Positions 46,600 through 50,127 of a stretch of 58,631 nt of DNA are shown here, piece by piece. The notes under the pieces were generated by a model. It had not been told where the DNA came from. It did not search any database and saw nothing but the letters and a program-made list of their open reading frames with translations. Each line of letters starts with the position of its first letter. Positions within the stretch are counted from its first letter, which is position 1. This stretch comes from Ilumatobacteraceae bacterium (GTDB lineage Bacteria > Actinomycetota > Acidimicrobiia > Acidimicrobiales > Ilumatobacteraceae), in NCBI GenBank assembly GCA_040401695.1, contig JBBANY010000002.1, positions 1 through 58,631 on the forward strand, read 5' to 3'. The position numbers and the translations under genes were made by a program.

Positions 46600-47388
46600 T
46601 CAGGCGAGACGCTTCATGCGGTCGAGCACTCGCTCGGCAGTGGGCTCGCTGATCTCATCGACGACCTTGCCGTCGGCGAGGAAGATGACTCGATCGGCGT
46701 ACGAGGCCGCATTCGGGTCGTGGGTGACCATGACGATGGTCTGGCCGAATTCGCTGACGGCGCGACGCATGAATCCCAACACGTCGGAACTGGACTTGCT
46801 GTCGAGGTTGCCCGTCGGCTCGTCGGCGAAGATGATCTTTGGCTTGCTTGCCAGCGCGCGTGCCACGGCGACGCGCTGCTGCTGGCCACCCGACAGTTCC
46901 GCCGGTTTGTGGTCGAGACGATCACGCAGACCGACTGCGTCGATGACGCGGTCGACCCACGGCGCATCGGGCTCGACGTCGCCCAAGTCGAGTGGCAGTT
47001 CGATGTTCTCGCGCGCAGTAAGCGTGGGAATGAGGTTGAAGGCCTGGAAGACGAATCCCACCTGTTCGCGGCGCACGTGCGTGAGTTGGCGTTCACTCAG
47101 GGTCGCCAGATCGACGTCGCCGATGAACGCACGCCCCGACGTGAGCGAATCGAGTCCCGCGAGACAGTGCATGAGGGTCGACTTGCCCGAGCCACTGGGG
47201 CCCATGATCGCGGTGAATTCACCGCTGCGGAATTCGACCGAGATACCGTCGAGGGCGCGCACTTCGCTGTCACCCTTGCCGTAGATCTTCGATGCGTCGA
47301 CGGCGCTGGCCGCTGCCGTGTGTGCCGTGTGTGCCGTGTGTGCCGTGTGGGCCGTGTGTTCTTGGGGAACCGAGGGGGTTGAGTTCAC
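46600..47388 (-). CDS. ABC transporter ATP-binding protein (MacB/LolD-type) with an N-terminal (HTA)x5 repeat
   Basis: [25 protein letters not shown] and IIFADEPTGNLD motifs. GTG start at 47388. The N-terminal extension contains HTAHTAHTAHTAHTA. Confidence 0.9.
   Translation of the reverse strand: MNSTPSVPQEHTAHTAHTAHTAHTAAASAVDASKIYGKGDSEVRALDGISVEFRSGEFTAIMGPSGSGKSTLMHCLAGLDSLTSGRAFIGDVDLATLSERQLTHVRREQVGFVFQAFNLIPTLTARENIELPLDLGDVEPDAPWVDRVIDAVGLRDRLDHKPAELSGGQQQRVAVARALASKPKIIFADEPTGNLDSKSSSDVLGFMRRAVSEFGQTIVMVTHDPNAASYADRVIFLADGKVVDEISEPTAERVLDRMKRLA
47314..47358. repeat. 9-bp tandem repeat (TGCCGTGTG x4 + GGCCGTGTG), in-frame within the ABC ATPase 5' end
   Basis: Read directly from the sequence at 47314..47358. 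It encodes (His-Thr-Ala)x5 on the minus strand. Confidence 0.9.
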
Positions 47389-47425: not shown

Positions 47426-47758
47426 GTGAGAGTTGATCCGGCAGCAAATGAGCATCTGCATCCGTACCTCACGTCGCTCGGTGAGAAAGTCGAGACCGCG
47501 TGCCCGGGCCGCACCGCAGAAGTGATCAGCAACGCAATTCGTGGCGCCCTCGGACTGCCGCGCGTTGACGTCGACGAACTCACTGCTGCCGAGTCGACCG
47601 TGCACATGATTGCCGAGCAGTTCGTGATCGACGTGCACGGGGTCACCGACCAGCAGTTCGCCGCGTTGAAGCAGCATTACGCCGAACCGGAAATCGTTGC
47701 GATGCTTTTCCGCATGGCGCTCGCCGACGGCCTGGGCAAGTTGGAGAAGGTGGCCTGA
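47426..47758 (+). CDS. small hypothetical protein, possibly CMD/AhpD-like helical domain
   Basis: GTG at 47426 is preceded by GACGGGGG. 110 aa with coding-like usage. The stop overlaps the next ATG (TGATG). The upstream part of track ORF 47318..47758 lies in the 9-bp repeat and is not credible. Confidence 0.5.
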   Translation: MRVDPAANEHLHPYLTSLGEKVETACPGRTAEVISNAIRGALGLPRVDVDELTAAESTVHMIAEQFVIDVHGVTDQQFAALKQHYAEPEIVAMLFRMALADGLGKLEKVA

Positions 47759-48282
47759 TGTCGACAACACCGCGTCTCGCGCCGGTCGATCCGAATGCCC
47801 GCTCGGTATTCGGGTCGATACTCGCTCACCAGCCCGGTCTCGCGGCCGCGTTTTTCGAACTGTACGGAGAGTTCTGGAACCGCGGTGTCCTCGACCATGC
47901 GTCGAAGGAGACCGCGCGTGTGCGCAATGCGCGCATCACCGACTGCGGGTATTGACGCAACGTCCGCTTCACGGTCGTGGAGCAGCGCAACCTGACGGAA
48001 GACGAAGTCGACCTCATCGACGACGATTACGCATCGTCACGTCTTGCCGAACGCCAGAAGCTCGCCATCACGTTCGCCGACGCGTTTCTTTCGGCGCAGG
48101 GCCCTCCATCGGCTGACGTGCAGACGCGCATCGAAGAAGAGTTCAACCCCGCCGAACTTGCCGAACTGGGTATCGGCCTCGCCCTCTTCCACGGCTTCAG
48201 CAAGATGCTCATCATCTCGGGCTGTGAACCCGAAGAGATGGACACCACGGTGCTGGCCGCCCCCGGCAGCCAACCCCGCTGA
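47758..48282 (+). CDS. carboxymuconolactone decarboxylase/AhpD-like protein with in-frame TGA at codon 66 (candidate selenocysteine, C-G-Y-U; alternatively a nonsense pseudogene)
   Basis: Track ORFs 47758..47955 and 47977..48282 share one frame and are separated only by TGA at 47953..47955. The TGA falls at the second Cys position of the family CxxC motif (RVRNARITDCGY*RNVR). A SECIS-like hairpin follows. Confidence 0.5.
47961..47987 (+). other. SECIS-like stem-loop downstream of the in-frame TGA
   Basis: Core stem GCUUCAC (47966..47972) pairs with GUGGAGC (47977..47983), with apical loop GGUC (47973..47976) 17 nt after the UGA. A possible interrupted lower stem runs 47961-47964 / 47985-47987. 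Confidence 0.45.
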
Positions 48283-48287
48283 CGCGT

Positions 48288-48896
48288 CTACCAACCGTCG
48301 TAGTGGACGACTTCGGACACGTCCTTGCGTGACACCGGCCCCGTCGGACCGTCGGGGAAGCCGAGGGGAATGGTCGTGCCGATGAACACCTCATCGGGGA
48401 TGCGCAGGATGCGACGAATGTCGGCTTCGAACATGCCGTGCAGCGTGGTGAAAGCGGCACCGAGACCCAGTGCGCGCGCAGCGACGACGAGGTTCTGGCT
48501 CGCCGCATAGACGGCTGAATACATGAAGGTCTCGCGCGGCGCGCCGGGCGGATAGATGTTGTGTCCGCACACGAAAATGATGCACGGGAAGTTGCCCATG
48601 TTCGCGCCGAGATTCTTCGCGCCGGCAAGGGTGCGACGGTCGACTGCACTTTCGGGTACCGGCATCGCCGCAACGCGATCGGCGAACGGCTTGAACAGGT
48701 CGCCCAGTTCCTTTCGCACGGCCGGGTCGGTGACGACGACGAAGTCCCACCCCTGTGTGTTGTTCGGGCTGCTGGCCCGTGTCGCGGCCCACAGCACCTT
48801 GTCGAGCAATTCCTGGGGCACGGGGTCCGGCTTGAAGAAGCGCATCGCGCGCGCGGTTCCCATTGCTTCGAATACGTCCATCGAGCCTTTGTCCAT
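48288..48896 (-). CDS. nitroreductase-family protein
   Basis: 202 aa. RAMRFFKPDPVPQELLDKVLWAATRASSPNNTQGWDFVVV is a typical nitroreductase N-terminus. Confidence 0.85.
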   Translation of the reverse strand: MDKGSMDVFEAMGTARAMRFFKPDPVPQELLDKVLWAATRASSPNNTQGWDFVVVTDPAVRKELGDLFKPFADRVAAMPVPESAVDRRTLAGAKNLGANMGNFPCIIFVCGHNIYPPGAPRETFMYSAVYAASQNLVVAARALGLGAAFTTLHGMFEADIRRILRIPDEVFIGTTIPLGFPDGPTGPVSRKDVSEVVHYDGW

Positions 48897-49461: not shown

Positions 49462-50100
49462 CTACTTCTTGTTGGGCTGGGGGAGAACCCGCAGGTACGG
49501 CTTCACTGCCTTCCAACCACCGGGGAAGAGCGTCTTGGCTTCTTCGTCGCTGACGGCTGCGCCGATGATGACGTCGTCGCCGTCTTTCCAGTTGGCCGGC
49601 GTCGCAACCTTGTAGTTGGCGGTCAACTGCAGCGAGTCGATGACGCGCAGCACTTCGTCGAAGTTGCGTCCCGTCGAAGCGGGATACGTGATCGTCAACT
49701 TGACCTTCTTGTCGGGGCCGATGACGAACACCGAACGCACGGTGAGGGTGTCGTTCGCGTTCGGGTGGATCATGTCGTAGAGATCGCTGACCTTGCGATC
49801 GGGGTCGCCGATCATCGGGAAGTTGACGGGCGTGCCCTGCGTTTCGCCGATGTCGCCTTCCCACTTCAGGTGCGAATCGACGGGGTCGACCGACAGGCCG
49901 ATCACCTTCACGTTGCGCTTGTCGAACTCGGGCTTGATGCGTGCCACGTAGCCGAGCTCGGTGGTGCACACCGGGGTGAAGTCCTTCGGGTGGGAAAAGA
50001 GGACGCCCCACGAGGTGCCGAGCCACTCGTGGAAGTTGATCGTGCCCTGGGTGGTCTCTGCGGTGAAGTCGGGAGCGGTATCGCCAAGTCGTAGTGCCAT
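49462..50100 (-). CDS. 1-Cys peroxiredoxin (Prx6-type)
   Basis: MALRLGDTAPDF..., FSHPKDFTPVCTTELG (peroxidatic Cys). ATG at 50100; the track start at 50109 is a GTG three codons upstream. Confidence 0.9.
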   Translation of the reverse strand: MALRLGDTAPDFTAETTQGTINFHEWLGTSWGVLFSHPKDFTPVCTTELGYVARIKPEFDKRNVKVIGLSVDPVDSHLKWEGDIGETQGTPVNFPMIGDPDRKVSDLYDMIHPNANDTLTVRSVFVIGPDKKVKLTITYPASTGRNFDEVLRVIDSLQLTANYKVATPANWKDGDDVIIGAAVSDEEAKTLFPGGWKAVKPYLRVLPQPNKK

Positions 50101-50127
50101 GCGCGGCACGATAACGCTGTTTCGCCC

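Follow-up and report, generated by a model that had tools for sequence, protein, structure and literature searches.

The stretch analysed here (hereafter the window) comprises 58,631 nt of contig JBBANY010000002.1 from an Ilumatobacteraceae bacterium (GCA_040401695.1, positions 1 to 58,631). It carries on its forward strand a candidate selenoprotein gene of the AhpD/carboxymuconolactone decarboxylase (CMD) superfamily that is interrupted by an in-frame TGA. Two open reading frames (ORFs), 47758..47955 (65 aa, ATG start) and 47977..48282 (101 aa, GTG start), lie in the same frame with an offset of 219 nt. Translated as one, 47758..48282 comprises 174 codons plus the terminal TGA (48280..48282). 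Its sole internal stop is the TGA at 47953..47955, and the codons between this stop and the GTG at 47977 are open (RNVRFTV). The local peptide reads ...RNARITDCGY*RNVRFTVVEQ..., in which C63 (47944-46) is followed by Gly, Tyr and the TGA (codon 66); with the UGA read as selenocysteine (Sec) this would be a C-G-Y-U redox motif (TGC GGG TAT TGA, 47944..47955). A hairpin resembling a Sec insertion sequence (SECIS) follows on the same strand, its stem formed by 47966-47972 and 47977-47983 and its GGUC loop by 47973-47976. A preliminary description of this DNA had pointed to the two ORFs in one frame with the TGA as the only stop between them. Both the ORF list and the translation bear this out, and all of its coordinates were correct when the sequence was read again.

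Structure modelling and profile comparison both give the product of 47758..48282 an AhpD/CMD fold. Searched against PDB, the family profile matched 2ijc and 2o4d (PA0269), 7xw1 (P. aeruginosa AhpD), 2gmy and 2prr, with a best E value of 9e-12, and the profile alignment places C-G-Y-[TGA] on the C-A-Y-C of 2ijc. An AlphaFold (AF2) model computed from the family alignment reached a predicted local distance difference test score (pLDDT) of 86.3 and a predicted TM score (pTM) of 0.82. With this model as the Foldseek query, the top 34 PDB matches were all AhpD/CMD-family structures (2prr, 2gmy, 7xw1 and 2ijc included), and target-normalised TM ranged from 0.56 to 0.80 across the top 30. Profile similarity, the all-helical fold and the position of the CxxC thus place the protein in the AhpD/CMD superfamily (PF02627, COG2128). 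It has the all-helical fold and the CxxC position in common with the known structures (2ijc, 2o4d, 7xw1, Atu0492 2gmy and 2prr). It differs from the AhpD structures and the M. tuberculosis-type AhpD in having a presumptive Sec in place of the second Cys, Arg in place of the catalytic His, and a separate half-length partner encoded upstream.

A protein search returned 87 clusters, about 25 of them full-length (155-184 aa, 41-57% identity) and about 60 fragments. In the latter, some 60 of the 87 clusters, the sequences are C-terminal pieces of 95-110 aa that start just past the TGA position and are 55-98% identical to the window protein; the stop is therefore widespread, and gene callers split the gene at it. 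The aligned full-length homologs all have Cys at the TGA position (20/20), within the invariant context R-N-A-R-x-T-D/E-C-G-F/Y-C-R-N-V-R-F. The UGA thus stands at the second Cys of the CxxC, as had been proposed. Genome loci with the Cys form were fetched by a peptide pattern with Cys at the Sec position, and hence contain Cys forms only by design; the 75 loci with TGY at this codon represent 70 distinct DNA sequences. They come from Erythrobacter/Porphyrobacter, Ilumatobacteraceae, other Acidimicrobiia and Desertimonas flava. The named relatives of the downstream fragment are metagenome-assembled genomes (MAGs) labelled Actinomycetota bacterium.

Contigs were taken for five of the fragment clusters, with 60-88% identity to the window protein. 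Gene order in them is alike: a MacB-type ABC transporter, a small ORF, a 65-aa ORF, an ORF of about 100 aa, a nitroreductase, a cytidylyltransferase-like gene and a 1-Cys peroxiredoxin. Every syntenic locus (L001-L009; 61-98% amino acid identity, GC content 52-64%) has the same in-frame TGA. In a sixth cluster (54% identity), for which gene calls but no DNA were available, the same split into 60 aa and 110 aa occurs in a different upstream context. A scan of metagenome contig DNA, in which the pattern D/E-C-G-F/Y-TGA-R-N-V-R-F was the sole requirement, found at least 120 matching loci. Nearly all of these have a homologous open frame that extends for about 65 codons before the TGA and about 105-110 codons after it, and the peptides that follow the TGA are highly diverse (RNVRFTVVEQ, RNVRFAVARQQGL, RNVRFDSARAAGL, RNVRFAGARAEGL). 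Two of the Sec-form genes lie on contigs the size of near-complete genomes, namely WLWI01000001.1 (L160, 4.65 Mb) and JGI Ga0620986_00029 (L001, 2.38 Mb).

The hairpin in the window, GCUUCAC-GGUC-GUGGAGC (47966..47983), starts 11 nt past the UGA and has 7 bp including one U.G pair, with a spacing of 17 nt from the UGA to the loop. Stem, loop and spacing are as the preliminary description gave them. The lower stem that it added (47961/47987, 47962/47986, 47964/47985) can form in the window and is not kept in relatives. From 123 extractable segments we obtained 83 distinct 48-nt sequences 3' of the UGA, and a hairpin forms in all 83, 11-18 nt after the UGA, with GU in every loop. Three classes can be distinguished. 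Class A (57 sequences, the window included) follows GCUUC[A/G]C-GGUC-G[U/C]G[A/G][A/G]GC and starts 11 nt after the UGA. Class A' (4 sequences) reads GGUUCGCG-GGUG-CGCGAGCC. Class B (22 sequences) follows CUC[C/U]GCC-CGUG[A/C]-GGC[G/A]GGG and starts about 18 nt after the UGA. Among the loci L085-L204 the peptide after Sec differs by hairpin class, being F-[T/A]-V-[V/A]-[E/K/R], F-A-G-A-R-A or F-D-S/L-A-R-A/E-A-G.

The hairpin shows both covariation and frozen synonymous sites. Pairing holds in 99.2% of cells for class A. At one position of the stem 42 sequences have G-C and 15 have A-U, with zero mismatches, a difference that matches Thr/Val versus Ala/Ala codons; two more positions vary between U-A and U.G. 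For class B the paired share is 96.8% of cells, and double changes occur at three pairs. The observed score was reached by 0 of 500 shuffles in either class, and slid controls were paired at only 32-60% over both classes (32-58% in class A). Third codon positions within the class A hairpin (CGC, TTC, ACG/GCG, GTC, GTG/GCG) are invariant or nearly so, even in loci of 52-53% GC, whereas the GTN codon immediately 5' of it uses all four bases. The 70 distinct Cys-form sequences, taken as a control, have no fixed hairpin. Their longest perfect stems are of 0-9 bp, mostly 4-6, against a 7-bp stem in 70 of the 83 Sec forms (stem-length difference, p = 1.7e-14); in overall folding energy Sec and Cys forms differ only slightly.

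The preliminary description noted a likeness to the SECIS of fdhF, and the E. coli K-12 sequence agrees, with a GGUC loop at a near-equal distance. Counting the U of UGA as 1, the loop begins at nt 22 in fdhF, whose UGA is codon 140, and at nt 21 in the window. The SelB-binding mini-helix of fdhF and the window hairpin both lie within coding sequence, immediately 3' of the UGA. They differ in the stem, which is a perfect 7 bp with U.G or U-A in the window family and a bulged-U helix in fdhF. The window family also has no conserved lower stem by this comparison, and the role of SelB at its hairpin is presumed.

Taken together, a UGA within a continuing frame, the alignment of this UGA with Cys and a conserved 3' stem-loop with GU in its loop make it very probable that the UGA at 47953..47955 is a Sec codon served by a SECIS, and that 47758..48282 is one gene for an AhpD/CMD-fold selenoprotein of 174 residues. 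According to this model, UGA codon 66 would be read as Sec, and the hairpin at 47966..47983 would be its bacterial SECIS, binding SelB-GTP-Sec-tRNA(Sec) and handing it to the ribosome with the UGA in the A site, so that RF2 is outcompeted. The product would then bear a C63-x-x-U66 selenylsulfide redox centre where AhpD-like proteins have CxxC. Its most likely role is that of a thiol/selenol oxidoreductase that reduces peroxides or disulfides, probably in concert with the CMD-like partner, whose ORF (47426..47758) is translationally coupled to its gene.

This family has a published history. AhpD-like (COG2128) and CMD-domain (PF02627) selenoproteins with CxxU were reported from the Sargasso Sea (Zhang, Fomenko & Gladyshev 2005; PMC1088965), and 'AhpD-like 1', with 299 sequences, was the fourth most abundant selenoprotein family in the Global Ocean Sampling (GOS) data (Zhang & Gladyshev 2008; PMC2398784). 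Both papers support the statement in the preliminary description that AhpD-like proteins are a described prokaryotic selenoprotein family. In the AhpD-like 1 block of Dataset S1 of the 2008 paper, the read JCVI_READ_1095337016623 is identical to the window protein at 84 of 88 positions and has U at codon 66; its listed sequence is LAHQPGLAAAFFELYGEFWNRGVLDHASKETARVRNARITDCGYURNVRFTVVEQRNLTEDEVDLIDDGYESSQLAERQKLAIAFADA... At least nine further reads in that block contain RNARITDCG. The window gene and GOS 'AhpD-like 1' have in common the CxxU at the AhpD CxxC position, the SECIS directly downstream and the existence of Cys homologs, and by sequence the window gene is a member of that family with nothing substantive apart. 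The GOS entries consist of read fragments and show no genomic context; it is the longer contigs used here that reveal a partner ORF, synteny and three classes of SECIS. Since a near-identical sequence stands in the selenoprotein list published in 2008, the selenoprotein reading, which is correct, is not new: the family, down to this clade, had already been predicted to be one of selenoproteins.

Several results weigh against the selenoprotein reading, and they concern the hairpin, the protein family and the decoding machinery. The 51-nt stretch with the window hairpin is unexceptional alone (minimum free energy z-score 0.18). About 11% of window positions have a hairpin of at least 7 bp 8-24 nt further on, and 3.4% have one with GU in the loop; Rfam has no family that matches the window hairpin. 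By itself this hairpin is weak against chance, and it is lifted far above chance because it is conserved across relatives. As to the family, the CMD/AhpD-like layout that the preliminary description saw in the joined product holds for the family profile and the fold, but not for a single-sequence search, in which the product with Cys substituted at the stop scored 19.9 bits against Pfam CMD, below the gathering score of 23. None of the curated NCBIfam models for seleno-AhpD proteins comes near its cut-off: the window protein scored 28.4 bits against NF053654 (YciW-related (seleno)protein; cut-off 310), 25.6 against TIGR01926 (cut-off 81.8) and 16.8 against NF041047 (GSU3128 family; cut-off 110), and it is not listed for NF041238, against which the homolog P0037 scored 11.1 (cut-off 175). 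Codon 70 (47965-47967) is an invariant Arg, in Sec and Cys forms alike, where the AhpD-type His of C-x-x-C-x-x-x-H aligns (U-R-N-V-R here, C-V-N-M-H in AhpD). The protein therefore lacks the His of AhpD sensu stricto, and the invariant Arg in its place means that chemistry of the AhpD type should not be taken for granted.

As to the machinery, ARAGORN found no tRNA-Sec in the 58.6-kb window or in 205 sequences (2 Mb of loci). In the same set, tblastn with the E. coli K-12 SelA, SelB and SelD proteins gave a weak GTPase match only; in a search for SelD homologs, the best 120 clusters listed were enterobacterial. Nor did a SelD read from the same library turn up in the available part of the GOS supplement. 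The source genome would have to encode the Sec machinery in the part that lies outside the sequence read, and selenium incorporation in this family is at present a prediction.

Since the Sec machinery is presumed, programmed read-through of a different kind has to be considered, in which a near-cognate tRNA (Trp, Cys or Arg) would decode the UGA under stimulation by the hairpin. Read-through can be promoted by hairpins 3' of stop codons in other systems, which counts in favour of this explanation. What makes it quite improbable is that the UGA replaces the catalytic Cys of a CxxC, the classic Sec/Cys pair, that the hairpin has the position and the GU loop of a bacterial SECIS, with the loop as in fdhF, and that the family was already among predicted selenoproteins. 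Read-through of this sort would also not be expected to coincide with the redox Cys or to bring a SECIS-type hairpin with it.

The locus could also be a split gene, with translation stopping at the UGA and restarting downstream, so that polypeptides of 65 aa and about 101-108 aa assemble and the hairpin serves termination-reinitiation. The GTG at 47977 would suit a restart, and the family already has a separately encoded, translationally coupled CMD-like partner. Termination-reinitiation is nevertheless very unlikely because a conserved restart codon is lacking: the first ATG, GTG or TTG in frame is codon +3 in 24 of the 83 sequences, codon +8 in 12 and codon +18 in 11, and 25 have none within 20 codons of the TGA. 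The residues RNVRF, between the TGA and any restart, are invariant in Sec and Cys forms, and there would be no reason for a stop to coincide exactly with the redox Cys.

We find it hardly credible that the TGA ends a broken CMD-family gene, whether as a pseudogene, through a recent nonsense mutation or through a base-call error. Automated callers do give separate ORFs of 65 aa and 101 aa, and no Sec machinery was found in the window and the 2 Mb of loci. The same TGA, however, occurs in more than 120 independent assemblies, at a protein divergence of at least 40% and GC contents of 52-64%, amino acids are conserved on both halves, and homologs have Cys at the TGA codon. The preliminary description had suggested aligning codon 66 with homologs and inspecting relatives for TGC or TGT. 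Cys is present at this codon in the 20 full-length homologs and in the 70 distinct Cys-form sequences, and close as well as distant relatives keep the TGA (not TGC/TGT) together with the hairpin; the TGA is neither a fresh nonsense mutation nor an error of base calling. Use of UGA as a sense codon throughout the genome has practically no chance of being right, for nothing more than the in-frame TGA itself speaks for it, while among ordinary stops in the window TGA is used most often (12 of 22 likely genes, including this one at 48280..48282) and a scan for further TGA-bridged coding ORF pairs in the window gave adjacent genes or antisense frames only, with no second candidate selenoprotein.

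The Sec reading of the locus adds little as biology; since 2005-2008, AhpD-like CxxU proteins have counted among the most abundant families of predicted selenoproteins in environmental metagenomes. Its value lies in annotation repair. The preliminary description expected an automated annotator to report fragments, and this is what is seen in relatives: NCBI MAG and JGI records still list the gene as fragments of 98-110 aa, named 'hypothetical protein' or 'alkylhydroperoxidase family enzyme'. Several selenoprotein families of the AhpD superfamily for which NCBIfam models exist are listed in a review of 2026 (PMC13188914). The NCBIfam seleno-AhpD models are the best-scoring models for the window protein and have the same superfamily and the same CxxU logic, but its subfamily is not covered by them. 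PGAP-style annotation therefore leaves fragments, and automatic pipelines will keep splitting the gene because no curated NCBIfam model reaches its cut-off. Modest usable facts are that one family has three SECIS hairpins, that a CMD-like partner ORF is conserved and that Arg stands where AhpD has its catalytic His. Judged from the aligned sequences, a single protein family uses three different predicted SECIS hairpins, each of which partly dictates the peptide after Sec. The distribution of the gene would imply Sec decoding in abundant freshwater Actinomycetota lineages.

Upstream of the selenoprotein gene, on the same strand, lies the CMD-like partner ORF (47426..47758, 110 aa, GTG start), which is without the CxxC region. 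By hhalign it aligns with the selenoprotein family over residues 70-159, the portion of the fold beyond the CxxC, with a probability of 97.5% and an E value of 8e-12; its best PDB match is 2ijc (6.6e-8). The stop of the partner overlaps the ATG of the selenoprotein gene by 1 nt (TGATG), an overlap that 38 Sec-form loci have as well. Both the Sec-form loci and the actinobacterial Cys-form loci L011, L044, L048 and L065 retain the partner; these four belong to Acidimicrobiia, Ilumatobacteraceae and Actinomycetes MAGs. No such ORF precedes the Erythrobacter/Porphyrobacter Cys-form genes (L010 and L012-L084 apart from the partner-bearing L044, L048 and L065). As a module, selenoprotein and partner are widespread in uncultured freshwater Actinomycetota, some of them with small genomes (one relative lies on the 2.38-Mb contig).

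In one MAG (L009; GCA_010030155.1, RGPY01000042.1, 2307-2882) a single 191-aa ORF encodes the partner together with the N-terminal part of the selenoprotein (...LFHIALCDGF|RLDPVDPTARS...). Compared with L001, this locus appears to have lost the stretch GKLEKVA/TGATG/MSSTP. This joined ORF is either a natural fusion or an assembly artefact; a natural fusion would suggest that the two products act together. On the basis of the TGATG coupling in most Sec-form loci and of this in-frame fusion, the selenoprotein could be the catalytic subunit of a two-gene heteromer with the half-length, motif-less CMD-like partner, and not a classical homo-oligomeric AhpD, a proposal that we put forward tentatively and regard as rather doubtful. 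Replacement of the catalytic His by Arg would imply a chemistry or substrate unlike AhpC/peroxiredoxin reduction.

The redox context noted in the preliminary description is present on both sides of the gene. Besides the CMD-like ORF upstream, there is downstream a convergent nitroreductase gene (48288..48896, minus strand; PF00881, E 7e-25) that is syntenic in L001-L009. A 1-Cys peroxiredoxin gene follows (49462..50109, minus strand; PF00578, PF10417), 93-100% identical in the syntenic loci. Elsewhere the window consists of ordinary actinobacterial chromosome and carries ilvD, an acetolactate-synthase-type thiamine pyrophosphate enzyme, ilvC, myo-inositol-1-phosphate synthase, MMPL and acyl-CoA dehydrogenase. 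At permissive thresholds Rfam gave two candidates, both within coding sequence and most likely chance matches: an S6-S18-Chlorobi leader at 47880-47948 on the plus strand (18.2 bits, threshold 47.4) and an sbcD RNA at 47878-48053 on the minus strand (17.3 bits, threshold 40). At 47314-47359 there is a 9-nt tandem repeat, TGCCGTGTG, with 5.1 copies and 94% matches. Its minus strand codes for (HTA)n close to the N-terminal end of the ABC-transporter ATPase at 46600..47388 (MNSTPSVPQEHTAHTAHTAHTAHTAAASA...). The ATPases of relatives have 241-250 aa, against 262 aa here, and the repeat may therefore vary in length.

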